Below, piece after piece: positions 12,079 to 63,540 of a stretch of 64,000 nucleotides of DNA; position 1 is the first letter of the stretch, and every line of letters begins with the position of its first letter. The notes below the pieces were generated by a model that was given only the letters and a program-made list of their open reading frames with translations, did no database searches and was not told the origin of the DNA. Made by a program: the position numbers and the translations under genes. Origin of the DNA: Candidatus Oxydemutatoraceae bacterium (GTDB lineage: Bacteria; Pseudomonadota; Gammaproteobacteria; Poriferisulfidales; Oxydemutatoraceae); assembly GCA_965219575.1 (NCBI GenBank), contig OZ244779.1, positions 1,068,769 to 1,132,768 of the forward strand, read 5' to 3'.

Positions 12079-12474
12079 TTTGGTTTTGGTTTCCATAGAT
12101 CAAATTAATGAATATATAAAATAGTGCAGACTCCGCTGGGACTGTTGAAAAAGTATCGTCAGCGTGCAACCGTAACCGCTTGCGCCGTGAATTTATAATA
12201 ACCACCAAGCCGTAGGGGCAGGATAAAGCCGCCGATTGAGCCGGTAGATCAATCGGCAACTCTGATGTCTGCCCTTAAGTGTCGTTCTGCACAGCCGTAA
12301 CCGCTTTCGCCGTATGGTTTTGGTTTCCATAAATTGGATGAATGAATGTATAAATCGTGCAGGTGCAACGCGTTATGGGCGGACATATAAGTCCGCCCCT
12401 ACCACTCTATGAAATACTTTTTCAACAGCCTGCCGCTGCAACCACCCCGTCAGGCCGCGCCTGCCACCCCTCCA
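12079..12474. repeat. Composite repeat locus: IR-bounded element (12138-12432) with REP doublet and hairpin insert, followed by CCCCTCC-family repeat
   Basis: gggactgttgaaaaagt...tactttttcaacagcc; REPs at 12212-12274 (with insert) and 12377-12402; CCGCT on both flanks. Confidence 0.9.
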
Positions 12475-12494
12475 CAAATTAAAGCAAAATATTA

Positions 12495-13784
12495 TCAAGC
12501 GAACATATCTTGGACGATATTCTCGAACCAGCTATGCGCGTATTCAACTTCTCTTTCTCTGGCAAAGTCGGTTGCATCCATAGGCGTTAGCCCACCGGCT
12601 ATTTTTTCTATGTTGCTTTTGTCTTCGGAAAGCTTATACACTGCGGCTACCGAAATACCGTAATCCGGTGCGACGATACTATAGCAGGTATTGACATAAG
12701 AGGGTACCTCCGTCGGTTTTTCATGGAGGCTCGCAACAACCGCCATGGCACATATTTTGGCCTCGGAGTTTGCCGCATAACCCGATTTGGGCAATCCGGT
12801 TGCAATGCTCGCATCTCCGACGATATAAATGTCTTTTTGCAGGGTTGACTCAAAAGTGTCTAAATGTATCGGGCACCAGCCCGAATCGTCTGCAACGCCG
12901 CTATTTTGAGCAATCCGACCTGCTTTTTGAGGGGGTATCAGGTTGATCACATCGCCCTTGAAGTCGTCGAACTCGGTGGAGACCGTCATCTTTGTGGTGT
13001 CAACCGCAACGACACCTCTGCTACCCGTATCCGCCCCCGAAACCCACTCGATCATTCCTGCATAGCGTTCTTCCCAGGCTTGCATGAAAAGTTCCTGTTT
13101 GGAGAATTTGTCTTTGGCATCGATAACCATGATTTTTGATTTGGGTTTGTTGTTTTTTAGGTAGTGGGCTATTTGGCAGGCGCGCTCGTAAGGACCCGGC
13201 GGGCACCGGAAAGGATTACCCGGTGGTGTGATGATGACCACACCGCCGTCCTGCATCGCTTCGAGTTGTTGCCTCAAGAGCATCGTTTGTTCGCCCGCTT
13301 TGTACGCGTGTGGCATGACTTCGCTTGCCGCTTGCGTATAACCGTCTACGGCATCCCATTGAAAATCTATGCCGGGTGACAATACCAGCTTATTGTAAGG
13401 TAGCTTGGCACCGCTTGCGGTAGTAATTATTTTTTTCTCGGGATCGACCGTATCCGCCGTTTCGTTAACCACTTTGATGCCGCGTGCCCTCAAGCCATCG
13501 TAGCCGAATTGTAGGGTGGCTAAATCGCGCCCGCCGCCGATAACTTCATTGCTCATAAAACAGGTATAATAATTCGGGTTTGCTTCTATCAGTGTCACAT
13601 TGATAGATTGGTCCATCATTTTGATGTACTTAGCGGCGATCGCGCCGCCTGCGCCCCCACCGATAACCGCAACCTCGTGCGAGGTACCCAAAGCCAGTTG
13701 AGGAAAACCTAATATTGTGGCCCCGCCGGCAACGGTGCCGCAAGCACTTAGTTTGATAAAATCTCTTCTGTTGATGTTCGACAT
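12495..13784 (-). CDS. fccB: Flavocytochrome c sulfide dehydrogenase, flavoprotein subunit
   Basis: Tat signal NRRDFIK, GGGAGG FAD motif, [29 protein letters not shown]; start reset to MSNINRR. Confidence 0.93.
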
Positions 13785-13812
13785 TTCACTATCTCCTTGA
13801 TAATTGTTGGGC

Positions 13813-14484
13813 TTAATTACGTACGCTGGCGTAGTACTGCAACAAGTTGTATATGCTCTCGTCGCCGTGTACTTCAAGCATTTCCGTGAGTTTGGTGCGC
13901 ATTTTTTTAGGCATCTCACGACGGTCTTCTATATAATCCTCCAGAGTATACTGCAGATAAGGTATCCATTGTCCCGCCAACAGACCGACATCGTCGGCGG
14001 TCGAAAGACCACCGTCTTCATGACATTTACCGCAATACTCCTCGTGCAGTTCCTCACCTATGGCAACTTTTGATTTATCGTAATCTTGTTCGACGACTAC
14101 GACCTCGGAGCCGTCCAATGCATTCGCCATCGTGATAATCTCTTCGAGTGTATAGCCCGATGCGATACGAGACATAATCGTGCTAAAGCGAGGATATGCT
14201 TCTACATACTCGTACTCCTCGTCTTGATACAATATCTCGAGCGCAGCGTCTAAGCCGGCTTCGTCGTCGGTGTATTTATATGCGAGCATGGTACCTATAA
14301 AATAGTTTTTGGTTATCCCGGCGAGAGACGGGATTGCCGGGCCGCTGCTGACACCGTTCTCACCGTGGCACGCTACGCAACTATTCAGTAGCATTTGTGC
14401 CGATGCCGTCTGCGCTTGAGCAACCGTCGTTACTCCGAATAGCAAAGTTAAAGCAAGAAATAGAAAATTAAGTCTTTTGATCAT
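13813..14484 (-). CDS. fccA: Diheme cytochrome c subunit of sulfide dehydrogenase
   Basis: Signal peptide, CVACH and [13 protein letters not shown] motif, immediately upstream of fccB. Confidence 0.88.
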
Positions 14485-14655
14485 TTTGAAAGCCTCGTTC
14501 TCGTTAAAAAGTCGGTCGTTAAATTTAGGGTATCATACAGCGATTGGTGGTTTTGTGCAAGTGGTGTGGTTTATGTATGTCATTCTCAATTTCTGCAAGC
14601 AACCAATAGGGGTAGATTATCGAGCCGGCGATTCAATATCTCGTTTCGGTTTTCG

Positions 14656-15210
14656 TCAATCGAGCGAGGCACTTTGATTGTCGCTCGGTTGTTTGGGTTT
14701 TTTCGGTGTTTTGTGGGCGACACCGACATGGCACGAAATACAATTTTCGCCTTCGGCGTGGGCGCGTTCGTGTTTGCGTTTTGCGGTTCTATCTTGTTCG
14801 TCGAGATCCATAGCTTGGAATTGATGGCAACTCAGGCACGTTGTCGAGTACGACGAATCGAGCTTGCCCCATACCTTGTTTGCCATTCTCCATCTGTGTG
14901 CCTCGAATTTTTCTTGACTGTCTATAGTGCCGAGTATTTCGTGCCACACATCTTTTGCCGCCATCAGTTTGGCGTGTAGCTTTAGATCGAGCTGATCGGG
15001 TACATGACAATCGCTACATTGGGCGCGTATGCCTTGTAGATTTGAGTAGTGAACCGACTCTTTCCATTCCGCTTCGACCCACTGCATAGAGTGGCAAGAG
15101 GTACAGAACTCGGTGGTGTTTGTCGCTTCTAGGGTGGTTGTAAATGCGCCGGTTGCAACGATGCCGGCAATAAAAACCACACCGATTGAAATAATTCCTT
15201 TGTATTTCAT
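14656..15210 (-). CDS. NapC/NirT-family tetraheme cytochrome c
   Basis: N-terminal TM helix; TNTTEFCTSCH, CSDCH, CLSCH, CISCH. Confidence 0.92.
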   Translation of the reverse strand: MKYKGIISIGVVFIAGIVATGAFTTTLEATNTTEFCTSCHSMQWVEAEWKESVHYSNLQGIRAQCSDCHVPDQLDLKLHAKLMAAKDVWHEILGTIDSQEKFEAHRWRMANKVWGKLDSSYSTTCLSCHQFQAMDLDEQDRTAKRKHERAHAEGENCISCHVGVAHKTPKKPKQPSDNQSASLD

Positions 15211-15282
15211 TTAAATGTCCGTATACGGATTATAATTATATATCAATTATCGAGTTTAGTCGCCTTATTTTATGAAAACAAA

Positions 15283-21043: not shown

Positions 21044-21275
21044 AGCAAGTGGCGTGACTTTGTGCAGAACCTGCCCGCTGTAAGCCACATAATTATATAA
21101 CCACCCCATGACCCCATGGAAAGGTTTTACATTTCGTACCATGTGCTAAGATTCTGCATAACGTTACGCCGGTTGACCTACTGATTCAATCGGCGGTTCT
21201 GTTGCGCCTGCCACCCTAAGGTTAGACATACCAGTCCGTCCCTGCGGTGTATGGAATACTGTTTCAACAGCCCCA
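21040..21275. repeat. Degenerate composite repeat locus
   Basis: Remnants of hairpin (ccggttgacctactgattcaatcggcgg), cgcctgccaccc, decayed REP and right IR tttcaacagcccc. Confidence 0.7.
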
Positions 21276-23887: not shown

Positions 23888-23889
23888 CG

Positions 23890-25131: not shown

Positions 25132-25820
25132 CGATGAACCCGTTGCTGGAATGTCGGGCGATCACCCGATATTACGACGACGGCGTGTCGCGTACCGAAG
25201 TCCTAAAAGGATTGGATTTAGAGGTGATGCCGGGTAGTACGCTGGCAATCGTCGGTGTATCGGGTTCCGGCAAGAGTACCTTATTGCATCTACTGGGTGG
25301 TTTAGACACGCCGAACGAAGGCGATATCACAATTCAAGGGCAGCGCATCGATACGATGTCGGAGACCGAGCGTAGCCGCTTCAGGAATCGGCATATCGGC
25401 TTTATCTACCAGTTTCATCATCTACTGGGCGACTTTAATGTACTGGAAAATGTGGTGATGCCGTTGCTGTTGCGGGGACAATCTTTTGCTAAAGTAGAAA
25501 GCCTAGGCGCGCAACTACTTGCCAAGACCGGTCTTAAAGAACGGGCAAAACACAAACCGTACCAATTATCGGGCGGGGAACGTCAACGGGTTGCTATCTG
25601 TAGGGCGATGATAACCCAGCCGAGCATTATTTTGGCGGACGAACCGACCGGGCAGTTGGATAGAAATAGTGCCGAAGCCGTCACCACCGAACTATTGAAC
25701 TTGAGTGCCGATAACCGAACCGCATTGATATTTGCCACGCACGATCAAGATTTGGTGAGCCGCTTACCCGAAGTGTATAGAATTGACGGTGGGCTATTGA
25801 ACCGCCGATTGAGCCGGTAG
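25128..25820 (+). CDS. lolD: Lipoprotein-releasing ABC ATPase
   Basis: GVSGSGKS, GFIYQFHHLL, LSGGERQR, ADEPTG; ATG overlaps lolE stop. Confidence 0.93.
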   Translation: MTMNPLLECRAITRYYDDGVSRTEVLKGLDLEVMPGSTLAIVGVSGSGKSTLLHLLGGLDTPNEGDITIQGQRIDTMSETERSRFRNRHIGFIYQFHHLLGDFNVLENVVMPLLLRGQSFAKVESLGAQLLAKTGLKERAKHKPYQLSGGERQRVAICRAMITQPSIILADEPTGQLDRNSAEAVTTELLNLSADNRTALIFATHDQDLVSRLPEVYRIDGGLLNRRLSR

Positions 25821-26020
25821 GTCAATCGGCGGTTCTATTCAGCCTGACGGGATGGTTGTGTCGTGAGGCTGTTGAAAAAATGCTGTTCTGCAAAACTGTA
25901 ACCGCTTGCGCCATTGAATTTACGATAACCACCGAGCCGTAGGGGCGGACTGGCATGTCCGCCCTAAAGTACCGTTCGGCACAAACCCAACCGCTTGCGC
26001 CACCTAATTACGACAACCAC
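25791..26020. repeat. Composite repeat left of RAYT (hairpin, IR, forward REP at 25939-25964)
   Basis: gtaggggcggactggcatgtccgccc; gaggctgttgaaaaaa. Confidence 0.9.
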
Positions 26021-26129
26021 TCGTCGTTTATTTGCTACCGTCTGTCGAATTGCTAAATAGACAAACTCACTATCCTGATAAATTTTTGATATACACATCT
26101 ATTCAATTCTTAACCCACAAGGATTATTT

Positions 26130-26696
26130 ATGAGAAACAAAAATGTCAAACCTAAAACTTATGCTCGCCGTCGTCAATCTATGCGATTGAAAGGATACGA
26201 CTATGCTCAACCGGGAATGTATTTCGTCACAATCTGTGTTCGGAATAAATTATATTTATTCGGCGATATTATCAATAATCAAATGCAATGTAATGATGCC
26301 GGTAATATGCTATGGTTTTGGTTTTATCAAATTGAGCATCAGTTTGCCGGTATAAAATGCGATGAGTGCATGGTGATGCCGAATCACATTCATTTTATTA
26401 TTGCTATTACAGAAGCGCAGCAACAATGCCATTCTATCGTTGCGTATGATAACCAAAAAATATCTTTAAGTTGTATTGTGCGATGGTGGAAGACTATGAC
26501 AACCACAGATTATATTCGTGGTGTTAAGCGATACGGCTGGGAGAGATTCGATAATAAGCTATGGCAGCGCAGTTATTGGGATGGTATTATCGATAATGAG
26601 ATATTTTTACATGAAATCCGTAAATACATCAAATATAACCCACAGAAATGGTCAACCGATACATTGAATACAGAAAATAAAGTTGCAAGGGGTTGA
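26130..26696 (+). mobile_element. REP-associated tyrosine transposase (RAYT, HUH/Y1)
   Basis: RRQSMRLKGYDY..G.YFVTIC, VMPNHIH (HUH), LWQRSY, YIKYNP (catalytic Tyr); flanked by inverted GTAG REPs. Confidence 0.93.
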
Positions 26697-26699
26697 CAT

Positions 26700-27019
26700 G
26701 GGGCTATTGAAAAACAGAACTGTCGATTGAACCAGTAGGTCAATCGGCGTAGCGTTGTGTAGAATTGTGATGCGTTGCGTCTGCACAAATAAAATCGTAC
26801 ACCAGTTAATTTATGGAAACCAAACCCAAATGGCGCAAGCGGTTGCGGCTGTTCAGAACGGCACTTTAGGGCGGACATGTTAGTCCGCCCCTACGGGTGG
26901 GTTGGATAATTATTCGGCGCATAGCGGTTGGGTTCGTGCAGAACGGTACTTTTTCAACAGCCCCACTTCTGCAACCACCCCGTCAGGCTCCGCCTACCAC
27001 CCCTCCGAAGGAGGGGAAT
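26700..27019. repeat. Composite repeat right of RAYT (IR, hairpin, reverse REP at 26869-26894, IR, CCCCTCC repeat)
   Basis: gggcggacatgttagtccgcccctac; actttttcaacagcccc; cccctccgaaggagggg. Confidence 0.9.
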
Positions 27020-36590: not shown

Positions 36591-36613
36591 AGCCCAAGCA
36601 ACACGCAATCTAT

Positions 36614-40117: not shown

Positions 40118-40134
40118 CTTTAGATGCTCCGACT

Positions 40135-41178: not shown

Positions 41179-41215
41179 GGTCTTTTATATTTGTCAGTAT
41201 AATGTGGAAGCATAG

Positions 41216-41832: not shown

Positions 41833-41904
41833 TTATAAAAAGATGTCGCGTGCTTCAATAGGACCGGCAACAGGCTATAATATGCCCGAAGGAATATTGA
41901 AAAT

Positions 41905-42780: not shown

Positions 42781-42815
42781 ATATCCAAAATTTCACTAAT
42801 TAAAAGGAGCTTGTC

Positions 42816-43541: not shown

Positions 43542-43985
43542 CATGTCCGCCCTTAAGTACCGTTCTGCACGACACCAACCGCTTGCGCCAACAAATAATG
43601 GTTTCCATAATATTAATGGGTAAACGCGTTAATCGTGCAAACATGATACGTGGGGCTGTTGAAAAAGTGCGGGCATTGCACAAACCTAACCGCTGTGCGC
43701 CGTGAATATTCGCAAACCGCCGTAGGGGCGGACTTATATAAATTGCCGATTGACCTACTGGCTCAATCGGCGGCTCTGTTCTGCCCGTAACGTTGACCGG
43801 CATGATTTATACATTCATTCATCCAATTTATGGAAACCAAAACCAAATGGCGCAAGCGGTTGAGTTTGTACAGAACAGTACTTAAGGGCAGACATGTTAG
43901 TCTGCCCCTACAACTCGGTGGTTATCGTAAATTCAATGGCGCAAGCGGTTACGATCGTGTAAAACGATATTTTTTCAACAACCCA
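43510..43985. repeat. Composite repeat locus with three REPs
   Basis: REPs at 43527-43552, 43722-43786 (insert), 43886-43911; IRs at 43652 and ~43984. Confidence 0.9.
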
Positions 43986-43991
43986 AGTATC

Positions 43992-44669: not shown

Positions 44670-44687
44670 CGTTGAAAATATAAGGTC

Positions 44688-45668: not shown

Positions 45669-45669
45669 A

Positions 45670-45903
45670 TGCCGTTATGCACAACATCAACCGTTCTGCG
45701 CCAATAAATAATGGCTTCCATGATATTAATGGGCGAATGCATCAATCGTGCAAATATGATGCATCTCGGGCGGACATCATTAAATTGCCGATTGACCTGC
45801 CGGTTCAATCGGCGGCTCTATACTGCCCCTACGGGTGGTTTGCGTAATTAGGTGGCGCACAGCAATTGGATCTGCACGATGCCAGTACTTCTTCAACAGC
45901 CCC
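45670..45903. repeat. Partial composite repeat (reverse REP with hairpin insert, right IR)
   Basis: REP 45768-45832; cttcaacagcccc ends 2 bp before the next ATG. Confidence 0.85.
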
Positions 45904-45905
45904 AA

Positions 45906-46979: not shown

Positions 46980-46983
46980 AGAT

Positions 46984-48366: not shown

Positions 48367-48935
48367 AATGGGTATTGAAGATCGGCGGCAGCTTGTATAA
48401 GCATACCGAGTTGGCGGATGTGCTGGCACAAGCAAAACATCTCTCCCGAGCCTCGGCAAGATGCACGATCGTACCGGGTGGTGGTCCGTTCGCCGACCAA
48501 GTTCGGGCAGCCGCTAAACAGTGGCACTTAGACGAGCAAACCGCACACCGAATGGCCATATTGGGAATGCGTCAATACGGCAGATTATTGGCAAGTCTAT
48601 CACGATTGCCGGTATATTATTCGGATGAACAAGGCGGCGAACGTTGTGCGATATGGTTGCCGACGGACCGCCCGACACCGACATGTCTGGCTAAAATTCC
48701 CCATCGGCAACTGGATTGGGACTTTACTTCGGACTCAATCGCAATTTGCATGGCGGATTATATCGGTGCCGAATATCTGGTTTTGGTAAAAGCAATTTCC
48801 ATCGATCAGGCAGGTTCTCTGACAAAATTGGTAGACAAACGTTTCGTCGGTTTGATGTACGATAGAGCGGTGAAAGTTATTTGCCTATCGGTGGCAGAGT
48901 GGCTGCAAAAGAATACCGCAGCATTGTTCTCCTAA
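48363..48935 (+). CDS. Amino-acid-kinase-fold protein (MfnE/Orf21-like)
   Basis: VLKIGGSL, VPGGGPFADQVR, AHRMAI..M.QYG, WDFTSDSIA. Confidence 0.82.
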   Translation: MKWVLKIGGSLYKHTELADVLAQAKHLSRASARCTIVPGGGPFADQVRAAAKQWHLDEQTAHRMAILGMRQYGRLLASLSRLPVYYSDEQGGERCAIWLPTDRPTPTCLAKIPHRQLDWDFTSDSIAICMADYIGAEYLVLVKAISIDQAGSLTKLVDKRFVGLMYDRAVKVICLSVAEWLQKNTAALFS

Positions 48936-48988
48936 AAGCTAAACCTATTTCTCTCTTCGCATCCAATTCGCGATAACCATTTGTCGGC

Positions 48989-49040
48989 TAGAATAATTTT
49001 CTACTTGCATATTTCATACAATAAGGGATAATTCCCTTGT
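48989..49040 (+). promoter_or_regulatory. Putative sigma70 promoter with overlapping palindromic operator
   Basis: ttgcat (49005)-16 nt-gataat (49027); palindromes aaggga-taat-tccctt (49023-49038) and tagaa-taatt-ttcta; no SD before ATG 49042. Confidence 0.4.
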
Positions 49041-49516
49041 TATGAATAAACGTATTTCAAGCGCAGACCTCTTAAAAATTATAGATCGTGCGCTTGATGA
49101 ACAAGGTATCTCTGCCCGCCAAGCCTCTATTCTTGCCACCGGCACTCCCGAACTTATTCGCAATATGCGTCGGGGGCGTGTGCCTTCGGTGGAGAGATTC
49201 TACGCTTTATGCGATACCCTAGACCTAGAGTTTTATGTAGGTCCCAGATACCATCGAAAATCACCTTCGGTTCGTGCCGTTAGCGAAAGAAAAACCATGT
49301 CCGATATGCTCGAAGAGATAATATCTCGATTACCTCCTCGTAAAATCCTGCAGCAAACATCGAAGCCCGACAAATCATATAAAGACTCAAAATTAGGTAG
49401 TGCGTATCGGATTCCTGTTTGTAAGCGCAAAGTAGTAATGTCACCTTTCGCCAAAGTAGAAATGTCACCTTTAGGGGACAATAAAGCATTTTTAACCCAG
49501 CTTAGGAGAAGATGCA

Positions 49517-50826
49517 ATGAACGAAGGAACTTACTCTATGTCAGACAAAGAAATAGAACGCCACCATGTCCTCAAGCGATGCTTGGAGGAAAAATTACCG
49601 AGAGCCAAGGCCGCACAGATGCTCAACATCAGCGTCCGCCATGTGAAGCGATTATTAAGTGCCTATCGCAAGCAAGATATCAAGGCACTGATATCTAAAC
49701 GACGCGGTAAGCCTTCAAACAATAAAATACCGGAGACAATCAAACAACTAGCCGTTAAGCTCATTCGTGAGAACTATCACGATTTCGGACCGACTTTTGC
49801 ACATGAGCAGTTGTTTGAATGTCATGGGCATTTATTTGACCGCTCATTCAGCGTTGAAACCTTGCGCAAGTGGATGATTGCAGAGGGGCTACACCAGGGT
49901 AAGCGACGCAATGCAATCAAAACGCATCAAAGCCGTCCCAGACAAACTGGCTTCGGCAAACTCATACAGATTGACGGTTCGACCCACGATTGGTTTGAAG
50001 GGCGAGGCGACCCCTGCACGCTCATTATATTTATTGACGATGCCACCTCACAGATTACCGCATTGCATTTCTGTGCTGCCGAGACCACCTTTGATTATAT
50101 GCGAACACTCAAACAGCATATCCAACGCCATGGCTGCCCGTTGTGCCTGTATTCCGACCGCCATAGCATCTTTAGCAACAATGCCAAAGAGCAACACATC
50201 TTTCAACAACCGACCCAGTTCCAAAGTGCTTTGCAACAAATGGAAATTGAACTATGCCTGGCACGCACACCGCAAGCTAAAGGACGCGTTGAACGCGCAT
50301 TCAAAACCCTGCAAGACCGATGGGTCAAACTCATGAGGCTTCACAACATCTGCTCTATTGAGGAAGCTAACCAGTTTGCTCAATGGTATCTCCCAAAACA
50401 CAATCAGCAGTTCGCCACGAAGCCTCTAGACAGCCACGACTATCATCGCAAAATGCCTCTCACCCAGCGAGAATTAGCACTGGCTTTGTCTAAACAGAGT
50501 ACTAGAAAGTTATCGAAAAACCTCATCTGTCAGCATCATAATATACAGTATCTTATCAAAACCAAGAAACCCGGTTATGCGATGCGTGGCGCATCGGTCA
50601 CCGTGTGCGAGCTACTCAATGGCGAGATTGTCATACTCTACAAAGGGCGGGAGTTGGCGCATGATATCTACTGCGAACACCCCCACTGTCTCAACCGTAC
50701 AACGACAAAACAATCAATCTAGCGGTAGATGAGATTGTGGCAAAACACCGTCGCGGTCATAAGCCGAAGCCGACCCACCCGTGGAGACGCTACAATAAGG
50801 ATTATCTCAGTGCCAAGCAGAAGTAA
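49517..50826 (+). pseudogene. DDE transposase with frameshift near C-terminus
   Basis: QIDGSTHDWFEGRG, IDDATS, YSDRHSIF, AKGRVER; tail NDKTIN..KPKPTHPWRR is in another frame after the C5 run at 50680-50684. Confidence 0.85.
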
Positions 50827-50931
50827 TCAGAACCGGTGTTTTCCCAGACTTACGCACAGGCTGTCTAACATGCCTGTGCCACTGCAAACGCATCATTCGT
50901 CAAACCACGAGATAGCAACCGAGCACCACAC

Positions 50932-51190
50932 ACGCTCTAAAATGCTTGGGAATTGGAAGGTAGTAGAGTTCATCTCAACTAGAGATCGTCTCTTAACGGC
51001 ACGCTATAGAGCTTGTTTTTTAGTCGGCAAGCCTGATTTAGGCAAAAACAAGCACTGGCACCGCATACGCTCTAAAATGCTTGGAAATTGGAAGGTAGTA
51101 GAGTTCATCTCAACTAGAGATCGTCTCTTAACGGCACGCTATGGGGCTTGTTTTTTAGTCGGCAAGCCTGATTTAGGCAAAAACAAGCAG
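50932..51190. repeat. 135-bp tandem duplication inside the IS 3' non-coding region
   Basis: acgctctaaaatgcttgg at 50932 and 51067. Confidence 0.95.
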
Positions 51191-51749
51191 TATTAGCCAA
51201 TTTATCACCTAGTCGAATAATCAACTAACGGACATAAAGTAATCTTAGATATCTAGTTTCCTGAAGGTTTTATCGGCATCAAGGGTGACATTTCTACTTT
51301 GGTCAAGGGGGTGACATTTCTACTTTGGGTTGACATATCGGATTCCTGTTTTTGAGACGGATACCGCTATGGATGATACCTCGATCAATAAGGAAAAACG
51401 CGCTGTGGGTCATATATCTTTTCAGGAAAGTTGGTTCAACGGACAAGGTTTGAATCCGGAATACTGCATCATCGTACAAATCCTAGATCACTCGATGGAA
51501 CCCACCATAGCAACTCACTCAATGGTTTTGGTAGACCTTTCACGATACCGCCGACGGCAGGAGCGTATCTATGCAATACGCATCGGCGATAATCTCATTG
51601 TCAGGCGGCTTAGCAAAAACAAAGATAAATGGCAGTTAGTCGCCGACCACCCGAAATCAAAGCCGGAACCTTTTCCGAGTTCTGCGGAGATTATCGGAGA
51701 AGTCAGATGGATGGCAAAAACCTTCGGCTAAGCACTTTAGCTGCATAGC

Positions 51750-52097
51750 ACGGTGGTTGTGTCGTGGGGCTGTTGAAAAAGTACCGTCAGTGTGCAACCG
51801 TAACCGCTTGCGCCGTAAATTTATAATAACCACAAAGCCGTAGGGGCAGACCTGTGTGTCTGCCCTAAAGTACCGTTCTGCACGACACCAACCGCTTGCG
51901 CCGTATGGTTTTGGCTTCCATAAATTGGATGAATGAATGTATAAATCGTGCAGGCGCAACGCGTTACGGGCGGACATAATAATTGCCGATTGACCTACTG
52001 GCTCAATCGGCGGCTTTATATTGCCGATTGACCTACTGGCTCAATCGGCGGCTTTATACTGCCCCTACCACTCTATGAAATACTTTTTCAACAGCCC
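51750..52097. repeat. IR-bounded element (51766-52097) with REP doublet; second REP carries two tandem hairpin inserts
   Basis: REPs 51840-51865 and 51968-52068; 38-bp unit at 51982 and 52020. Confidence 0.93.
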
Positions 52098-52162
52098 TAT
52101 ATCTTTTATTTTTAGCGCACCTCCGCATTGAGTTTGATAGTATCGTATGATACTATCAAACT

Positions 52163-53160
52163 ATGCCTTCCAAATCGAATAAACCGCCGTATCGTGTCAC
52201 CGACGAGGCAATCCGTCTGGTTGCAGAAATTTCCGAGCTATTGGGTGAATTAGGCGCAACGACCTTTAAGAAACCTTTGGTTGAATTGCGCAAAAAGAAT
52301 CGCATCCGCACAATTAAGTCCACCTTGGCTATTGAAGGACATTCTTTTAACGAGACTCAAGTTACCGCAGTGTTAGAAAAAAAAGGGTGATAGGAACGAG
52401 AAAAGAAATACTGGAGGTTCAAAACGCACTTCGCCTATACGAAGCGATGGATCAATTCAGGTCTTGTAAAGTTAAAGATTTTCTTCGTGCGCATAAAATT
52501 TTAATGAAAGGACTACTACCGGATGCCGGGCATTACCGCACGAGGAATGTCGGTATCTTTGATAAGCAAGAGGTCAAACATGCAGCCCCTAAACCATCGT
52601 TTGTTCCACAACTCATGAATCGTTTGTTTGAGTGGATAAAAGGCGCAAATAAAATACATCCGCTAGTCTTGGGTTCGGTTGTTCATTACGAGATAGAATT
52701 TATCCATCCTTTTGAAGACGGAAACGGAAGGATAGGGCGGTTCTGGCAAGGGCTCATCCTGAAAGAATTTAATACATTTTTCAGGTATGTTCCGATTGAA
52801 AGCCTCATAGAGAAAAATCAAAAAAAATACTACGCCACTTTGAAAGCAGCCGATAAAGAGGGTAATTCAACCGTGTTTATGGAATTTATGCTGCATATTA
52901 TAAAAGCAACCTTGCAAGAGATGTCTGTAGATATCATAGGTATAATCCATACGACCGAAGATCGCCTGAGAGTAGCCTGCCTGCATTTCAAAACCCAAGC
53001 CTTTGCGCGCAAAGATTATATGCAACTGTTCAAGAACATCTCTAGTGCAACCGCCAGCCGCGATCTAAAAGAAGGTGTAAAGAACGGCAGGCTTGAGCCT
53101 ATCGGCCGGAGAAATCAAAGCCGATATCAGGCTGTTGACAAAGTATTTTATGAACCGTAG
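52163..53160 (+). pseudogene. Fic-domain protein, frameshifted in A8 run (52377-52384)
   Basis: STLAIEG, HPFEDGNGRIGR, TASRDL HTH; one extra A joins LEKK-RVIG. Confidence 0.85.
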
Positions 53161-53740
53161 GGACAGAATAGAGTTGCGTGTCTGCATAAGTATAGTGTAG
53201 GTGTATTCCCCTCCTGTGGAGGGGTGGCCTATGCATTTTGCAATGCACGCGTTTAGCAGTCATGTTGAGGCTCTGAACAAAGTCACGCCGATTGACCTAC
53301 TGGTTCAATCGGCGGTTCTATTTAGTCTGACGGGGTAGTCGCGTCGTGGGGCTGTTGAAAAAGTATCGCCAGCGTGCAACCGTAACCGTTTGCGCCATGA
53401 ATTTATAATAACCACCAAGCCGTAGGGGCAGACCTGTGTGTCTGCCCTTAAGTATCGTTCTGCACAGCCGGAACCACTTGCGCCAACAAATAATGGTTTC
53501 CATAATATTAATGGGTGAACGCGTTAATCGTGCAAACATGATACGTTACGGACGGACATGCCAGTCCGCCCCTACGGCGGTTTGTAAATATTTACGGCGC
53601 AAGCGGTTGAGTTTGAGCGATGCCCGCACTTTTTCAACAGTCGCGTCGTATTTGCACGATTTATACATCCATCCAATTTATGGAAACCAAAACCAAATGG
53701 CGCAAGCGGTTAGATTTTTGAGATGCCAGTACTTTTTCGA
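53130..53740. repeat. Composite repeat locus: long CCCCTCC-family copy plus IR-bounded element 53348-53644
   Basis: GTCGT on both flanks; REPs at 53422 (+) and 53550-53575 (-). Confidence 0.92.
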
Positions 53741-53800
53741 TGCCATTTCTTTTGAAATTTTTTTATATCATACTCCTAATTTATCGTGTAAAATGGGAGT

Positions 53801-54961
53801 ATGATATCGAGAATCTTAAAACCTGGCTCAAAAGATAGCTTTTTTCTATTTGGCGCAAGGGGCGTAGGAAAATCCTTTCTCCTTGAACATAAATTCAAGA
53901 AAAGCGCATGCTTATGGATAGATTTTTTAGACTTTGAAGAAGAGCAAGCCTTTCGCCGGAATCCCAATGAACTATCTTATAGATTGTCCAAAGGTAGCTA
54001 TCGCAGGGTTGTTATCGATGAAATTCAAAAAGTGCCTAAACTTTTGGATATCGTTCAAAAGGAGATGGGAAAGAATCCTAAAATCCAATTCATCATGACC
54101 GGTTCCAGTGCAAGAAAACTTAAAAGAGATCAAAGCAACCTGCTTGCCGGAAGAGCATTTACCTATCATCTTTATCCGTTAACCACCTTTGAATTAAAAA
54201 ACAACTTTGACCTCACCGAAGTACTAAACTTCGGTAGCTTGCCGGGATTGCTGGAGAAAAAATCAAAGGCTCGGAAAAGCGAGTTTTTAAGAAGTTATGT
54301 GCATACCTATATGAAAGAGGAGATAAGAGTAGAGCAACTGATAAGAAACTTCGATCCTTTTCAAACATTTCTTGAGGTCGCCGCACAACAAAACGGAAAA
54401 ATTATCAATTACTCTAATATCGCCGACGATGTGCAGGTGAACCATAAAACGGTGGCGAGCTACTTCACAATTCTCGAGGATACATTATTAGGTTTTATGT
54501 TGCCGTCGTACCATAAATCCATCAGAAAACAACAGCGTAAATCTCCTAAATTCTATTTCTTCGATACCGGGCTAAAGAAAGCTCTGGATAGAACCTTAAA
54601 CTTTGATCTTAGCGAAGGGACCTATGCTTTCGGAGCAGCCTTCGAGCATTGGGTTATCGCCGAGTGTTTTCGTCTCAACGCATACTTGAGAAAAGATTTT
54701 AAGTTTTCGTATCTTAGAACCAAGGACGGAGTGGAGATAGATCTGATTATAGAAAGACCCATGCAAAAAGATCTTCTGGTCGAGATAAAGTCTTCCGGAC
54801 AAATCAAAGACAAACATACGACGCATCTTTGTGCCTTTCAAAAAGACTGGAAGCCCGGCGGTATAAGCCAGATTTGGTCGTTGGATAAAAACGAAAAAAA
54901 TATCAAAGGGGTGGATTGTTTATTTTGGAAAAATGCGCTTAAAAGAATATTCATAGAGTAG
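53801..54961 (+). CDS. AAA ATPase with DUF4143 domain
   Basis: GARGVGKS, IDEIQK, TGSSARKL, LLAGRA, PKFYFFDTG, EIDLII..VEIKS. Confidence 0.9.
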   Translation: MISRILKPGSKDSFFLFGARGVGKSFLLEHKFKKSACLWIDFLDFEEEQAFRRNPNELSYRLSKGSYRRVVIDEIQKVPKLLDIVQKEMGKNPKIQFIMTGSSARKLKRDQSNLLAGRAFTYHLYPLTTFELKNNFDLTEVLNFGSLPGLLEKKSKARKSEFLRSYVHTYMKEEIRVEQLIRNFDPFQTFLEVAAQQNGKIINYSNIADDVQVNHKTVASYFTILEDTLLGFMLPSYHKSIRKQQRKSPKFYFFDTGLKKALDRTLNFDLSEGTYAFGAAFEHWVIAECFRLNAYLRKDFKFSYLRTKDGVEIDLIIERPMQKDLLVEIKSSGQIKDKHTTHLCAFQKDWKPGGISQIWSLDKNEKNIKGVDCLFWKNALKRIFIE

Positions 54962-54989
54962 AATTTGCGAACCACCTATAGAGATGCGC

Positions 54990-55390
54990 CATTCCCTTCG
55001 TTGTAGGGGTGGCCTATGCATTTTGCAATGCATGCGTTTAGCAGTCATGTTGAGGTTCTGAACAAAGTCACGCCGATTGACCTACTGGTTCAATCGGCGT
55101 TTCTATTCAGCCTGATGGGGTGGTTGCAGCGTGGGGCTGTTGAAAAAGTATCGCCAGCGTGCAACCGTAACCGTTTGCGCCATGAATTTATACAAACCGC
55201 CGTAGGGGCGGACTGGCATGTCCGCCCTAAAGTGTCGTTCTGCACAGCCGTAATCGCTTGCGCCGTATGGTTTTGGTTTCCATAAATTAACTGGTGTACG
55301 ATTTTATTTGTGCAAACGCAGTGCGTTTCGAGAAGGTATGTTATCTCCCTACGGTTCATAAAATACTTTTTCAACGGCTCCGTCGTATCT
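54990..55390. repeat. Composite repeat locus (long CCCCTCC copy, IR at 55133, REP at 55202-55227, IR ~55381)
   Basis: Near-identical to 53206-53470 over much of its length. Confidence 0.9.
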
Positions 55391-55454
55391 GCACAAGCAC
55401 GGTGTCTGCCCATTCCCTTACTGTGGCGGGTGCAATAGCCCCACGTTCTTGGCA

Positions 55455-56033
55455 TTAGTTCACAAAAAGCACGACCACACTGAGAATAGAACATACCGAA
55501 ACAAAAATGCCGATAGCGAGCCCAACACCCCATTTATAAATGTTATCTCTCAATTTAGATTGTTCTCTTAAGATGTCATCTCTCAATTTAGATTGTTCTC
55601 TTAAGATGTCATCTCGCAATTTAGATTGTTCTCTTGCAATGGTCGCAATGTCCTTTTTCATTTCTACAATATCGGTTTTTATATTCAAGATGTCGGTTTT
55701 CATAACCGCCATCTCAACTTCAACATTGTTTAGTCTCAGTTCTATATTTTTTATATCGGCTTTCATATCTACGATGTCGGCTTCAATATTGTTTAGTCTC
55801 AGTTTCATGCTTTCTATATCGGCTTTCATGTCTGCCATCTCGGCTTTCATGTCTACGATATCGGCTTCAACATTGCTTAGTCTTAGATCTATACTTTCCA
55901 TATATAAACCTGCCTTGTCCGATTGTGGGGGATGTGTTTCCGATTCTAGAAAGTCTAGCGTTGACTTCATTTCGAGCACCATTTTGTAAATAGTTTCAAT
56001 CGTTAAGTTATCTACATTTTCTATATTTTCCAT
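55455..56033 (-). CDS. Coiled-coil repeat protein with C-terminal TM anchor (DUF1640/Bdr-like architecture)
   Basis: RBS agaggt; heptad repeats IVDMKADI; three 33-bp repeats (REQSKLRDDIL) at 55545, 55578, 55611; WGVGLAIG TM. Confidence 0.75.
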   Translation of the reverse strand: MENIENVDNLTIETIYKMVLEMKSTLDFLESETHPPQSDKAGLYMESIDLRLSNVEADIVDMKAEMADMKADIESMKLRLNNIEADIVDMKADIKNIELRLNNVEVEMAVMKTDILNIKTDIVEMKKDIATIAREQSKLRDDILREQSKLRDDILREQSKLRDNIYKWGVGLAIGIFVSVCSILSVVVLFVN

Positions 56034-56438
56034 TTTTAACCTCTTTAAGTTGAATTATAAGAAAGAGCCTGCGTTATAGCAAGCCGTCTAATCGCAATCG
56101 GATTATAAATTCGGCTAGAGGGTGCTGTTTCGCGTTTCCGACGAACGGTATCAAAAATATGGATGAACTTGCAGAAGCCATTGATTGAGGTCATAGGTTA
56201 ATCGGCCGATACCATCTTTCAACGGCTCCAGCGTATCTGCACCATTCCAATCGCTACCCACCAATATGGCAAGTGATGCGACTTTCTGCTACGATAGCCG
56301 TTTATACCGAACAGGAGAAGCAATGAAAGATGTTATAGATAAGGAATTATTCGGATGGATCCCACTCTACGAAGGAATAGCCGACCCTTTTAGAGGTCGT
56401 CGGAGAAGAGCCATCGGCGGAACCAAAGCCGAAGAAAG

Positions 56439-57664
56439 ATGAGTAGCTATCTTTTTGAGGGGAAGTTTATTACGAAGCTACGCGCTTCTAATCCTAGACG
56501 TACACCGGACGAAAGCCGGACCGACAAGGCGACTATTCGTAACAAATCTAACGGCTATTACAGCTGGAAGTTACTTTCGGACGGCGATTCCTACGAGGAA
56601 TATATAAAGAAGGGCGGTCGTCCTAAAGATCTACGCTGTGACTACGACCGCGATCGTATCGCCTTAAGCGATACGAGAGAAGAAGCCTTAGCTAAAGCTC
56701 TTCCGCAGGCGGAAGCCGAAGATGTAGCCGAAGAGGAAACCGAATATAAGCCTGATGATCTGCCCGATTCGGATGAACTCTATGGGGTTGACGACATCGT
56801 TAAAAACGGTTGCTTTATGACTCGTGCAGAATTGGAGAACATTCTCGGACCGCTACGAAGCAAAAAAACATCGTTCTACAAGGTCCTCCCGGCACCGGAA
56901 AAACATGGCTAGCCAAACGGTTGGCGTATGCTTTGATGGGGGTCAAAGATAGCGATAAATTAAAAGCCGTACAATTCCATTCAAACATATCTTACGAAGA
57001 TTTTGTTATCGGATACCGCCCGTCGGGGGACGGAAAGTTGGAACTGAAGCACGGTCCATTTCTAGAGATGATAGACAAAGCCGAAAATGACGACAACAAT
57101 AACTATGTTGTCGTGATAGAAGAGATCAACAGGGGGAATCCCGCTCGGGTATTCGGAGAAATGTTAACCCTTCTGGAAGCCGATAAAAGAGAAGCGGGGG
57201 AAGCATTGCAACTGAGTTACGGCAAGGAAAAGGTGTTCGTACCACCCAATCTTTTCGTTATCGGCACCATGAACATTGCCGATCGCTCGTTGGCATTGGT
57301 TGATTTTGCTCTGCGTCGCAGGTTTGCTTTTATAGATCTGAAGCCTAATTTTGGAGATAAGTGGAAAAACTGGGTTCATGCGGAAATCGATATCCCCGAA
57401 GAATTTTTGGAAAAAATAGGACAGCGGATGAGAGAACTAAACGATACAATCGCAAATGCCTCCGGCTTGGGTGAACAATTTAAGATAGGGCATAGCTATT
57501 TGATACCGACCGGCAATACGATAGAAGCGGACTATAAAGGGAGTCATACGGCGTGGTATAGAGAGGTGATAAAAACCGAGATAGAACCGTTGCTTAGAGA
57601 ATATTGGTTTGATACACCGGAGACTGCCAAGAAGGAGGCGGAAAAACTTAGCGAAGGGATTTAG
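56439..57664 (+). pseudogene. mcrB: McrB-like GTPase, frameshifted in A7 run (56862-56868)
   Basis: KNIVLQGPPGTGKT, VQFH..SYEDFV, IEEINRG, GTMNIADRS, LRRRF. Confidence 0.88.
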
Positions 57665-58770
57665 TGGCAGTGTCGGCAACTGAGGCTATACTCATTGTAG
57701 GCAAGATTCCTATTCGCAATTTATAGCTACTGATATTCTACGCTTCCGACCTTCATCACCACGACGAGACGGCTAGAAAAAACCTCGAAGAGAATCCCGA
57801 CGACATTGCCGATATCGCGGCGGATATACTTTGCCATCATGTAGAGCGGCGGCTGAGGCGCAATCTGAGTTTTGGTTATCAAAATAAAGTTGCCGTTCTG
57901 AACAGAGTGCGAGGACGTATAGACCTGCTCTATACCGAGTCTCGTCAACTATTGAGCAAAGCCGAGGTCTGTTGCCGTTTTGCCGAACTGACCATTGATA
58001 CACCGCGCAATCGCTATGTGCATGCGGCATTGCAATATCTAGCCTCACTAAAACAGCTTGATAAAGAGCGAAAACACCAATGCCGTTTGCTCGCTATGCA
58101 ACTTGAAGCCATAGGTGTGGGACGGCAAAAACCACCCAACTATGGTGCGAGGAGCGAGCGTTTCGGCTTACACGACTACGCAGACAGAGCCATGCTATAC
58201 GCTGCCGACTTGGCATTTAGCTTAGCCTTGCCGACCGACATAGACGGCGACCATTACCTGCTATCTTCCGATAAAGATATCAGCTGGTTGCGAAAGTTAT
58301 TTGAGCGCGCAGTGCGCGGTTTCTATGCGATTAGACTTAAAGATATATGCGAGGTGAAATCGGAAAATTTGAAATGGGATAGGCAACAAGAAACCGATCA
58401 AATTAAAGACATCTTGCCGGAAATGCAAACCGACATAAGCATTAAAAATAAATCATCCGGCGAGTGTTTAATCATTGATACCAAGTTTAACGAAATAACC
58501 ACCAAAGGGTGGCATAGGGACAGGGCACTGCGCAACAGTTATATCTACCAAATATACGCTTATGTAAGAAGCCAAGAGCGATACGAAGATCCGTCATCGC
58601 GTTCAACGGCAGGGATGTTGTTGCATCCCTCGGTTGGCGAAGATTACAACGAATCGGTTACTATTCAAGGACACGAGTTCAAGTTCTGCACCGTCGATCT
58701 CGCAGCCGAGGCAAAGCAGATAACTGCCCGATTATTGGATCTGCTACCCGCACATTTTAGGGAAGTGTGA
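57664..58770 (+). pseudogene. mcrC: McrC-like nuclease subunit with in-frame TAG at 57724-57726
   Basis: IPIRNL*LLIFYAS, RGRID, MQTDI, IIDTKF, YQIYAY, GMLLHP. Confidence 0.85.
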
Positions 58771-58821: not shown

Positions 58822-58876
58822 GTAGGGGCAGACTTATATGTCTGCCCGCTTTATAGCGCATGGAATACTTTTTCAA
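58822..58876. repeat. Single REP plus right IR fragment
   Basis: gtaggggcagacttatatgtctgccc...aatacttttttcaa. Confidence 0.8.
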
Positions 58877-61714: not shown

Positions 61715-61819
61715 AATCCAACCTCCGCCGAGTGGTCATAATATAGTGAAAGGGGGAAGTCATCGCAAGCATAGCCATACTTGCTTATTATAGGCTACTT
61801 TCTCAAGCGACGATACCAG

Positions 61820-61910
61820 TGGCGGAGAGAGAGGGATTCGAACCCTCGATACGGGATAACCGTATACACGCTTTCCAAGCGTGCGCCTTCGACCGCTCGG
61901 CCATCTCTCC
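61820..61910 (-). tRNA. tRNA-Ser (anticodon GGA)
   Basis: Reverse complement GGAGAGATGGCCGAGCGG...CTTGGAAAG...long variable arm...GGTTCGAATCC...GCCA. Confidence 0.97.
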
Positions 61911-62010
61911 GCAATCAGAGGCTTATTCTATTACACTTGCACAGCGGTACACGGTTTGTATTTGCCGGTGTATATTCGGTGGGTTGTGCGTATCTATGAA
62001 ATTTGCCGGA

Positions 62011-62847
62011 TTACGGGTCGTAGATACGGCAGATTTTTTCAACGCCCTCGGCGATACGCAGCGACGGTCGCTGTATTAAATCCGACTCTATATAGTGGGT
62101 CGGTATTTCTTCTCCGAATAGATCGGCAATCGTTCCTTTATCTACGCCCGATTCAAAACTATGGAATATATAATCGGGCTTTGATAACAACAGTGCCTCT
62201 CTGCCGAGCCGCACGACTTGCGGCTCTAGATATGCATAGATGTTGGTGCCGCCGCAAAGGCTAATCGCTTTTGATATCCAACTCGTGCGGTTGACGCTGA
62301 GCGTGGGTTTGAGCCATAACAAATAGGCGGTTTTGCGATTGGTCTGCACGGTGCGGCCTAGCGATGTCAGAGTTTGCTCGAATCTATCGGCTAAAGCAGA
62401 TGATTTTTCGGGTTGTCCTATCAATACGCCTATATCTTTCAGTGTGTTTGCGATGTCTTCAAAATCACGCGGCTCGGAGATGTAAAAATCGTAGCCGGTG
62501 TCATTCAATCTCCGAAATACCGGTTGTTTGAGCATCACACCCCAGACGAGGATTAAATCGGGGGCAAGTTTAAGCAGTAATTCACGGTTAAAGGTACGGT
62601 AATCGGCAACGACGGGCAGTTCAAGTGCCTGCGGTGGATAATCGGAATGTTCCGACACGCCGACCAGATACTCGCCACCGCCTGCCGAGTAGACTAACTC
62701 CGTCAGATGCGGTGCCAGTGTGATAATACGGCGCGCCGGATTTTCCAATGAAATCGTTCTTTGCCAATCGTCTACGACGACGATTTTGTTTGCATCAACC
62801 GTCGTGCATAAACCGAGCAGTATAAAGATTATTATTTTACATTTCAT
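62011..62847 (-). CDS. btuF: Cobalamin-binding periplasmic protein
   Basis: RIITLAPHLTELVY..G, VGVSEHSDYP, PDLILVW, CGGTNI, IQRPSLR. Confidence 0.85.
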   Translation of the reverse strand: MKCKIIIFILLGLCTTVDANKIVVVDDWQRTISLENPARRIITLAPHLTELVYSAGGGEYLVGVSEHSDYPPQALELPVVADYRTFNRELLLKLAPDLILVWGVMLKQPVFRRLNDTGYDFYISEPRDFEDIANTLKDIGVLIGQPEKSSALADRFEQTLTSLGRTVQTNRKTAYLLWLKPTLSVNRTSWISKAISLCGGTNIYAYLEPQVVRLGREALLLSKPDYIFHSFESGVDKGTIADLFGEEIPTHYIESDLIQRPSLRIAEGVEKICRIYDP

Positions 62848-62938
62848 GGCTGTTTCGTATTAGTCTGTCTGTGTCGGTGCAAATATACCACTTGATTATG
62901 TTGATGTGTCGGTAGCGCATACATTACAAAATGCGGGG

Positions 62939-63540
62939 ACCACCCCGTCAGGCTGAATAGAACCGCCGATTGAACCAGTAGGTCAATCGGCGTGACTTTG
63001 TTCAGAACCTCAACATGACTACTAAATGCATGCATTGCAAAATGCATAGGCCACCCCTCCAGAGGAGGGGAATGTACCGACGCTATACCTTGTGCAGATA
63101 TTTCTGCAACCACCCCGTCAGGCTAACGCCTGCCACCCCTCCAAAGGAGAGGAATTGACTCGTGCAGACCCTTAGGGGCTGTTGAAAAAGTATCCACGAA
63201 CCGTAGGGGCGGACTTGCATGTCCGCCCGTGACGCGTTGGTCGGCACGATTTATACATTTATTCACCCGATTTATGGAAACCAAAACCATACGGCGCAAG
63301 CGATTACGGCTGTGCAGAACGATACTTTAGGGCAGACACACAGGTCTGCCCCTACGACTTTGTGGTTATCATAATTATGTGGCGCAAGCGGTTACGATCG
63401 TGCAAAACGGTATTTTTCAACAGTCCCCCTTAGCAACCACCCCGTCAGGCTAACGCCTGCCACCCCTCCAAAGGAGGGGAATTGACTCGTGCAGACCCTT
63501 AGCAACCACCTCGTCAGGCTTTTCGCCTGCCACTCCTACA
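62939..63540. repeat. Array of CCCCTCC-family repeats with an IR-bounded REP-doublet element (63175-63427) at one junction
   Basis: ~69-bp units near 63106, 63433, 63502; CCTTA at 63170-63174 and 63428-63432. Confidence 0.93.

Follow-up and report, generated by a model that had tools for sequence, protein, structure and literature searches.

Several described systems resemble parts of the repeats treated here. Miniature transposable elements with inverted repeats (MITEs) of DDE-type insertion sequences (ISs) include Correia/NEMIS, RUP and MITEAba12, and ISs that target repetitive extragenic palindrome (REP) hairpins include IS1397 and ISPpu9/10. Systems of REP doublets forming hairpins (REPINs) together with REP-associated tyrosine transposases (RAYTs) were reportedly described by Bertels and Rainey in 2011. 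For bacterial interspersed mosaic elements (BIMEs), we know of no description of terminal inverted repeats (TIRs) or target duplications. Passages of Nunvar 2010 (PMC2817692) describe REPtrons, in which GTAG-headed hairpins occur with a RAYT flanked by inverted copies; BIMEs, which are REP mosaics of alternating orientation with a few interchangeable linker motifs; and ISs that target REP hairpins. In the same passages RAYTs show neither IS-like multiple copies nor changes of location, and passages of PMC5581495 give them as typically single-copy; in these parts of both sources RAYTs are held to be vertically inherited and domesticated, with REPs and REPINs spreading by an unknown HUH route. 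TIRtrons, or TIRYTs, appear in passages of Di Nocera et al. 2013 (PMC3733652) as a RAYT-like gene between long TIRs that also make up a family of dispersed repeats. Here we analysed a window of 64,000 nucleotides (contig OZ244779.1, positions 1,068,769 to 1,132,768) from a Candidatus Oxydemutatoraceae bacterium, whose intergenic spaces hold four recurring modules, namely A, a family of REP hairpins; B, elements with inverted ends; and the palindromic modules C and D. An initial annotation of the window had read them as one four-module system, whereas they are separate element families layered on one another. Our preferred explanation, to which we give a probability of roughly 75%, is a genus-specific pile of non-autonomous elements that use two transposition chemistries and land in one another.

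The source genome (G000), that of a symbiont, is assembled as one contig of 2,369,097 bp with 47% G+C that contains the window. It was compared with its nearest relative (G003), which is about 92% identical to it in shared genes, with two sister genomes (G001 and G004) and with a further genome of the same genus (G002). Contigs from public runs (X1, X5, X6 and X7) were broken at every repeat. Elements bounded by inverted B ends are written T..t, and U and P denote internal boxes. Motif counts in the window were tested against 100 shuffles, in which 0 matches were expected for each motif. The REP pattern GGGCRGAC-N6-GTCYGCCC matched 16 times with at most one mismatch; at up to two mismatches the B end GGGGCTGTTGAAAAAGT matched 17 times (8 on the plus and 9 on the minus strand) and the C head 8 times; and the D hairpin was present in 12 exact copies, or 14 at up to two mismatches. 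With 16, 17, 8 and 12 matches against none expected, the four motifs named by the initial annotation are real, and its figure of about 25 REPs fits the 16 pattern matches plus the D-bearing REPs. Its intergenic clustering was likewise recovered, with 14 loci between 12088 and 63518 in place of the roughly 16 that it had counted. Genome-wide we found 302–303 REP hairpins, 456 B ends, 157 C modules and 174 exact D hairpins, and the words of A–D are the most over-represented 9–12-mers of the source genome. Complete T..t elements of the window, together with several one-ended fragments, are listed in Table 1. An Rfam scan of the window returned only a tRNA at 61823–61910 and no family matching the repeats.

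The RAYT-like gene and the unit that carries it

The first trace of a RAYT was a cut open reading frame (ORF) within a T..t pair elsewhere in the source genome, with a weak match to the NCBIfam RAYT model and full-length relatives in the sister genomes. A tblastn search with a sister RAYT revealed that the source genome holds two full copies and one cut copy, and the window ORF at 26130–26696 is one of the full copies. Its product scored 25.2 bits against Pfam Y1_Tnp (cut-off 23) and has 1058 homologues at E <= 1e-5, several of them named 'REP element-mobilizing transposase RayT' by JGI. Across an alignment of 36 sequences, H88 and Y149 were invariant and H86 was conserved in at least 90%. The structure predicted for the protein (predicted local distance difference test, pLDDT, 84.5) was matched by Foldseek to the TnpA proteins of ISDra2 and IS608 and to E. 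coli TnpA-REP (4er8_A; E 1.2e-6, root-mean-square deviation 4.2), with E-values of 1e-6 to 5e-6 for 4er8_A, 2xma and 2a6m; a sequence search of the PDB with the RAYT gave no meaningful match. Based on the predicted fold and the conserved residues, window 26130–26696 encodes a RAYT-like HUH/Y1 transposase.

The REPs at 25943 and 26869 are inverted around this gene with their GTAG/CTAC heads pointing outward, and are accompanied by U and P boxes; the gene is thus bracketed in the arrangement of a REPtron. Module A is a family of GTAG-headed REP hairpins, and its cognate HUH/Y1 enzyme would be the RAYT encoded in the window, which would process these REPs. Genome-wide, 289 of the 303 plain REP hairpins have the GTAG tag on exactly one side and REPs often occur in inverted pairs. 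When their placement was examined, 206 of the 303 were found inside T..t pairs, 77 had a T, U or P box no more than 130 bp away, and 20 were solitary. Furthermore, five REPs of the genome lie inside the loop of D (GCTTGTAG-REP-GATAGG) and four inside the C hairpin (TTGTAG-REP-TTAGGG), each directly 3' of GTAG. This position fits an HUH-type insertion beside a fixed tetranucleotide; alternatively, it could reflect one event that was copied afterwards.

The RAYT gene and the REPs around it are contained in a 1.1-kb T..t unit (Table 1). A second RAYT unit at genome position 66166–67266, on the other strand, is 99.5% identical to it over 1126 bp, and the homology between the two ends exactly at the right T end. 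This second copy is nested at a P/C junction with a 5-bp ACGAC/GTCGT duplication and is absent from the syntenic place in the nearest relative. The third copy is truncated, with an identity of 89%. The window unit itself stands at a synteny break, its two flanks mapping 1.2 Mb apart on opposite strands in the nearest relative. Sister genome G001 contains one RAYT plus a scrap and G004 contains five, and no RAYT was found in G003 or G002 with this query. With two full copies at unrelated loci, the RAYT of the source genome is neither single-copy nor free of IS-like duplication.

Ends, target duplications and empty sites of B

Pairing of nearest T and t ends in the source genome gave 175 pairs, of which 170 are no longer than 470 bp and are treated here as B copies; together they comprise 43,702 bp, or 1.8% of the genome. 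Their lengths peak near 167, 209, 255 and 295 bp. T begins with GGGGCTGT or GGGACTGT, and the U box reads AACCGCTTGCGCC. REPs are carried by 161 of the 170 copies. At least 40 different module orders were counted, for example T-U-P-REP-u-t in 26 copies and T-U-REP-U-P-REP-t in 18, and in some copies C replaces the REP, in accordance with the shuffled internal segments reported by the initial annotation. Folded as single-stranded DNA, B forms one long hairpin (–63 kcal/mol, z –5.5).

To identify the ends of B, we turned to DUF772 matches, which numbered 10 in G001, 11 in G004, 1 in G003 and 0 in both G000 and G002. All 10 IS copies retrieved are bounded by GGGRCTGTTGAAAAAGT, measure 1461–1827 bp and contain ORFs of up to 601 aa. 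Their transposase belongs to the IS1182 family (NF033551, 395.5 bits, cut-off 270; plus DUF772 and DDE_Tnp_1_6). A perfect 4-bp ACAT/ATGT duplication flanks eight of the ten copies, and the nine that come from G001 and G004 are located in REP-hairpin loops. B and the IS have their terminal 17–25 nt in common, one B end matching the IS left end over about 25 nt, and blastn of the IS against the source genome found nothing beyond these ends except a 133-bp remnant. Judged by the terminal sequences, the inverted repeats of B are evidently those of an IS1182-family IS that is intact only in the sister genomes. Two earlier candidates for their origin were rejected. The resident ISs of the source genome (IS3-like, ISNCY, two IS1595-like, IS110 and TnpB) have no T-type ends. 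A Tn3-derived MITE, with GGGG ends and a 5-bp duplication, was considered as well, but PF01526 had no match in the source genome, and the idea was dropped once the IS1182 match had emerged.

Perfect flanking repeats of 4 bp occur at 28 of the 170 B copies (shuffled-partner mean 2.2), of 5 bp at 29 (mean 1.9) and of 6 bp at 4 (mean 0.2), so that a perfect duplication is present at 61 copies with about 4 expected. These duplications comprise 34 different sequences, the commonest being ACAT/ATGT (14) and ACGAC/GTCGT (9); within the window, four of eight elements have kept a perfect 5-bp repeat. Many copies occupy a spacer of 5–7 nt that follows a ..GTGCAGA tail and precedes a CAACCA head, with the motif on both sides in 47 of 170 and on one side in 62 of 170, and a pattern search placed 0 of 170 in a REP loop. 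As targets, B would prefer ACAT/ATGT and, where a P or C tail (..GTGCAGA) is followed by a C head (CAACCA..), the ACGAC spacer that separates them.

Comparison with relatives revealed sites that are still empty. For the B copy at window 45672–45903, the site is empty in G003 and G001, with a related gap in G004; the empty site reads CTTAAATGAC, and the filled site reads CTTAAATG, the 232 bp of the element, and AAATGAC. Two scans against G003 were performed. An adjacency scan over 400 kb gave 25 adjacencies, mostly too diverged or too differently filled for clean boundaries, and a flank scan of the whole of G003 gave 122 flank pairs, mostly paralogous repeat flanks, from which only cases with unique flanks were used, picked by eye among the matches listed. 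Empty sites in G003 selected in this way are those of 408624 (GCGA), 596791 (GCGT), 2083953 (ATTT), 314418 (ACGAC) and 601540 (GTCGT). Counting the window copy and the matches listed, there are at least six clean empty sites with a 4–5-bp duplication.

These observations make B a MITE with IS1182-family DDE ends of 17–25 nt that inserts with a 4–5-bp target duplication, and the IS1182 transposase would have moved it in trans. Its cargo consists of the modules found at the flanks of the REPtron (REP, U box and P box) and, in the 1.1-kb version, of the RAYT gene, rather than of IS sequence; the HUH system would thus be carried as the passenger of a DDE-type element. The initial annotation, from which both the RAYT gene and the 4–5-bp flanking duplications were absent, had proposed that HUH-type and DDE-type mobility signals are combined here. 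Both are present, the former as a REP-flanked RAYT with a predicted TnpA fold and the latter as IS1182 ends with 4–5-bp duplications.

We also compared module copy numbers across the genus, counting T ends, C and D at up to one mismatch and REPs as exact matches. In that order of T ends, REPs, C and D, the counts were 400, 281, 139 and 220 in G000; 383, 39, 289 and 219 in G001; 100, 40, 116 and 130 in G003; 466, 115, 164 and 188 in G004; and 5, 0, 0 and 0 in G002. REP, C and T numbers differ between species independently of one another and of D, which argues against a single decaying element. A search of 10 genomes from eight other genera revealed neither T nor D, and among the genomes examined the A–D motifs occur only in this genus. 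The nesting described by the initial annotation, with D in A and C, A in B, and B beside C, was seen in every combination; for D in the window, 6 of 14 copies lie inside REP hairpins and 4 of 14 inside long C.

Each of these layers is of a known kind, although the initial annotation knew of no described equivalent: REPtrons and BIMEs, REP-targeting ISs and TIRtrons are all in print. Like REPtrons and REPIN-RAYT systems, the source genome has hundreds of GTAG hairpins, an HUH/Y1 gene with inverted copies and frequent inverted REP pairs. It differs from REPtrons in having two near-identical full RAYT copies and a cut one, where published RAYTs are typically single-copy, and in that REPs and RAYT lie inside a TIR-bounded, target-duplicating unit. 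In contrast to REPINs, what shows empty sites and young copies here is the T..t unit with its 4–5-bp duplications and not an inverted doublet free of TIRs and target duplications, and the youngest class of B holds one REP. B is similar to MITEs of DDE-type ISs in its IS-shared TIRs, target duplications, size of 160–470 bp, lack of a transposase gene, nesting and high copy number, but it takes only the terminal 17–25 nt from the IS, its cargo is another transposon system that includes the enzyme gene in 2–3 copies, and the autonomous IS is absent from the source genome. REP-targeting ISs find a parallel in nine of the ten sister IS1182 copies, and in IS110 copies of the source genome, which sit in REP loops; B copies of the source genome, in contrast, lie mostly at the spacer between P/C tail and C head or at ACAT/ATGT elsewhere, and none of the 170 in a REP loop. 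TIRtrons also place a RAYT-like gene within long TIRs that form a dispersed family, whereas here the TIR is that of a DDE IS and REPs are present too; moreover, the motif GGGGWSAS published for some of their TIRs is unmatched by T beginning GGGGCTGT. The mosaic of REPs with a few interchangeable linkers in B resembles E. coli BIMEs. A literature search, with limited coverage of subscription journals, found no RAYT with REPs lying within identified DDE-IS ends and duplicated with a target-site duplication. With its RAYT inside a DDE-ended MITE, the system offers a concrete route by which a RAYT can be duplicated and moved, and a specific case of two transposon systems that exploit each other. 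For annotation, the repeats are relevant in that B alone takes up about 1.8% of a small symbiont genome, and in that rearrangement breakpoints against the nearest relative coincide with repeats: synteny with G003 breaks at repeat clusters, and the 18 kb of window 40000–58000 map to at least five places in that genome.

Several B copies are notable for their surroundings. Within window 45666–45908, the 232-bp B sits exactly in the TAAATG stop/start overlap of two genes, and its AAATG duplication recreates the downstream ATG, so that both ORFs are intact and now lie 232 bp apart. A 209-bp copy at G000:C1 45055–45263, with a CCAT repeat, lies directly after an apparent tRNA 3' end (..GGTTCGAATCCTGCCGGGCCCA) and is 100% identical to the copy at 2129529. 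The P boxes (window 12322–12370, 51913–51960 and others) have the form TTTCCA-N17-TGTATAAAT, which reads like an extended –10 sigma-70 promoter directed toward the second REP and the outside of the element.

The mobiliser of B and rival explanations

A number of results weigh against the preferred explanation. The score of the window RAYT against NCBIfam REP_Tyr_transpos, 49.1 bits (E 5e-13), is below the cut-off of 80, and a profile search of the whole source genome with PF01797 returned 0 matches, a false negative given that three RAYT loci exist. The window RAYT unit lacks a flanking duplication, and the RAYT genes of the sister genomes are bracketed by REP arrays and not by T..t. No perfect duplication is found at 109 of the 170 B copies, its length varies between 4 and 5 bp, and at genome position 442634 one clean empty site in G003, among the matches listed, shows no duplication. 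B has only its terminal 17–25 nt in common with the IS and so did not arise from it by simple deletion. Finally, tblastn for the IS1182 transposase gave 0 matches at 1e-10 in the one-contig assembly of the source genome, in which traces of the IS are limited to a remnant of 30 aa and 133 bp at 80% identity and one 55-bp end; B copies nevertheless look recently active in this genome.

The last point rests on pairwise identities. A full-length partner exists for 157 of the 170 B copies, and 29 of these match a copy elsewhere with at least 99% identity, 11 with 100%. Identical partners stand at unrelated loci and, where duplications are kept, these differ. Two of the 29 young copies are pieces of RAYT units and some are tandem neighbours; 27 were left after dropping neighbours within 1.5 kb. 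All 27 carry a REP, and 20 of them hold a single one. It is possible that the young look is due to an unassembled IS-carrying plasmid, to very recent loss of the IS, to gene conversion, or to mobilisation by the RAYT or another enzyme. Young MITEs set against a missing transposase pose a testable question as to their mobiliser. We think it improbable that a REPtron packaged in IS1182 ends is still spreading with 4–5-bp duplications in a genome with a RAYT and without an IS1182 transposase. If it were, the RAYT or an unrecognised enzyme would mobilise TIR-bounded elements by a target-duplicating route, and we know of no such route described for HUH/Y1 transposases; the significance of the system would rise sharply if the RAYT, and not the IS1182 transposase, proved to move B.

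The strongest rival, which we regard as unlikely, holds that B is REPIN-like and moved by the RAYT or another enzyme of the source genome, that IS1182 shares or has borrowed its ends, and that the duplications arise by a route not known for HUH/Y1 enzymes. B activity indeed tracks the RAYT and not chromosomal IS1182: the source genome has two full RAYT copies and a cut one, no IS1182 and 170 T..t pairs, among which 29 have a partner at 99% or more, and G003 has no RAYT, only pieces of IS1182, and 30 T..t pairs with a best partner identity of 92%. G003 also lacks ISNCY and one IS1595-like family, however, so that B activity goes with these families as well and the RAYT is not the sole difference. 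The RAYT gene lies inside a T..t unit, and RAYT-like genes with long TIRs and matching TIR repeat families are in print, in passages of PMC3733652. The presence of a REP in every one of the 27 young copies would also suit this explanation, but it discriminates little when 161 of all 170 copies carry REPs. IS200/IS605-type enzymes, according to passages of PMC2817692, make no TIR-dependent cuts and no larger target duplications, and B has ends identical to those of a DDE IS that is itself flanked by duplications of this type. The young look could also stem from a plasmid outside the assembly, from recent loss, or from gene conversion within the set of 170 copies.

Preferring IS1182-ended MITEs with REPtron cargo, we consider it very unlikely that the repeats mainly serve the host, whether by ending transcripts, by stabilising mRNA or by binding proteins in the manner of E. 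coli BIMEs, and are kept by selection with mobility secondary. Their strictly intergenic position and strong structure would suit this reading, as would the P box, which reads like a sigma-70 promoter, and one insertion that recreates a start codon; against this, close relatives differ in whether the same sites are filled, G002 has almost none of these repeats, and no Rfam family matches them. Least credible of all is one old composite element that decays and is reshuffled by recombination alone, for although flanks are evidently shuffled, no perfect duplication is kept at 109 of the 170 B copies, [C+B] and B-B units form tandem arrays, and REP alleles with and without D interchange in otherwise identical paralogues, this reading is contradicted by precise filled and empty sites with duplications, by 100%-identical copies at unrelated loci with different duplications, by REPs inserted alone in D and C loops, and by copy numbers of T, REP, C and D that vary independently among the five genomes of the genus.

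Modules C and D, feature coordinates and neighbouring elements

The form of C is CRACCACCCCGTCAGGC-N3-4-GCCTGCCACCCCTCC-N3-GGAGGGG.., often with a ..GTGCAGA tail, and tandem arrays exist. Among 164 C modules, 99 were short, 38 were long with a D-bearing insert and 27 were of other types. From its sequence, C may be a CGTC-tagged REP, with CGTC directly 5' of an AGGC..GCCT stem. D is a 27-nt hairpin in a 38-bp unit, with 239 copies at up to two mismatches in the source genome: 79 inside a REP hairpin, 34 with one REP half alongside, 47 beside a C head, 23 in tandem 38-bp arrays, 2 beside a T end and 54 in other contexts. The 14 window copies of D include, besides those in REP hairpins and long C given above, two tandem copies within a REP. 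C, as a double hairpin that is often in tandem, and D are further small palindromic cassettes that occur in REP loops, in each other and as alternative cargo of B. The analysis of the source genome identified no mobiliser for C and D.

Table 1. Repeat features of the window, with positions counted from its first nucleotide
Feature	Position	Strand	Details
P-box/GTGCAGA remnant	12079-12137		directly left of B element 12138-12432
B element, complete T..t	12138-12432	.	295 bp; D-bearing REP and plain REP (12377-12398); 5-bp duplication CCGCT
C unit, truncated after CCCCTCC	12438-12474	+	adjoins right end of B 12138-12432
D hairpin with REP in its loop	19925-19978	.	REP just 3' of GTAG (GCTTGTAG-REP-GATAGG)
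One-ended B fragment	21168-21274	.	D, C-like piece, decayed REP, right T end
D hairpin and reversed C head	25804-25859	-	adjoins left end of RAYT unit
RAYT-carrying unit, complete T..t	25865-26964	+	1100 bp; no flanking duplication; order T, U, REP (25943-25964), U, RAYT, inner T-like end and D (26700-26748), P, U, REP (26869-26890), U, t
RAYT-like HUH/Y1 transposase gene	26130-26696	+	188 aa; HUH at H86-I-H88, Tyr149
C unit	26971-27016	+	adjoins right end of RAYT unit
B fragment without left T end	32261-32568	.	U, P, REP, U, P, D-bearing REP, t
B fragment without left T end	36333-36591	.	REP, P, D-bearing REP, u, t
Two tandem B fragments	41320-41725	.	period about 252 bp; D in one REP, absent from paralogue
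REP-U-P fragment, then B element	43531-43985	.	fragment 43531-43651; complete T..t 43652-43985, 334 bp
B copy without left T end	45672-45903	.	232 bp; 5-bp duplication AAATG; empty site in relatives
B element, complete T..t	51766-52098	.	333 bp; second REP holds two tandem D units, 38-bp period
Outer T-type element	53128-53711	.	long C and D; encloses inner B 53348-53644
Inner B, complete T..t	53348-53644		297 bp; 5-bp duplication GTCGT at P tail/C head junction
D and reversed C head, then B element	55072-55381	.	D and C head 55072-55127; complete T..t 55133-55381, 249 bp
Solitary GTAG-headed REP hairpin	58826-58847	.	outside any B
C and B array	62936-63540	+	long C with D (62936-63100), short C (63106-63174), complete T..t B (63175-63427, duplication CCTTA), two tandem C (63433-63540)

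The tandem B fragments near 41 kb belong to a tandem triplication at window 41252–41867 with a period of about 252 bp, in which each repeat unites part of a B element, part of an ISNCY end and the region upstream of the next gene; D is present in the REP of one repeat and not in that of the next. An ISNCY-family IS lies at window 49420–51337 (1922 bp; NF033594, 405 bits) and has 8 copies of about 100% identity in the source genome and none in G003. Several B copies adjoin fragments of ISNCY ends, with ..AAAGTAGAAATGT directly before B. The IS110 family has 7 copies in the source genome, e.g., G000:C1 883852–884826, 1375610–1376611 and 1429204–1430205; those inspected lie in the REP-hairpin loop inside B elements, where GTAGGGGCGGACTTGCATG is followed by the IS.

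Genes of the Rpn family (PD-(D/E)XK), which we take to be 'transposase_31'-like, were tried as cargo or mobiliser and rejected, as they have no consistent T..t bracket and their copy numbers are alike in the source genome (11) and G003 (12). The source genome contains 11–14 such genes at 14 loci, e.g., G000:C1 638458–639405, often beside a complete or partial B, and three of them have the same upstream p-u-t context. At the other end of the window, positions 1–7953 belong to a giant open frame, longer than 2650 aa, that extends beyond the window start, and the source genome encodes several families of repeat proteins of 4000–5800 aa.

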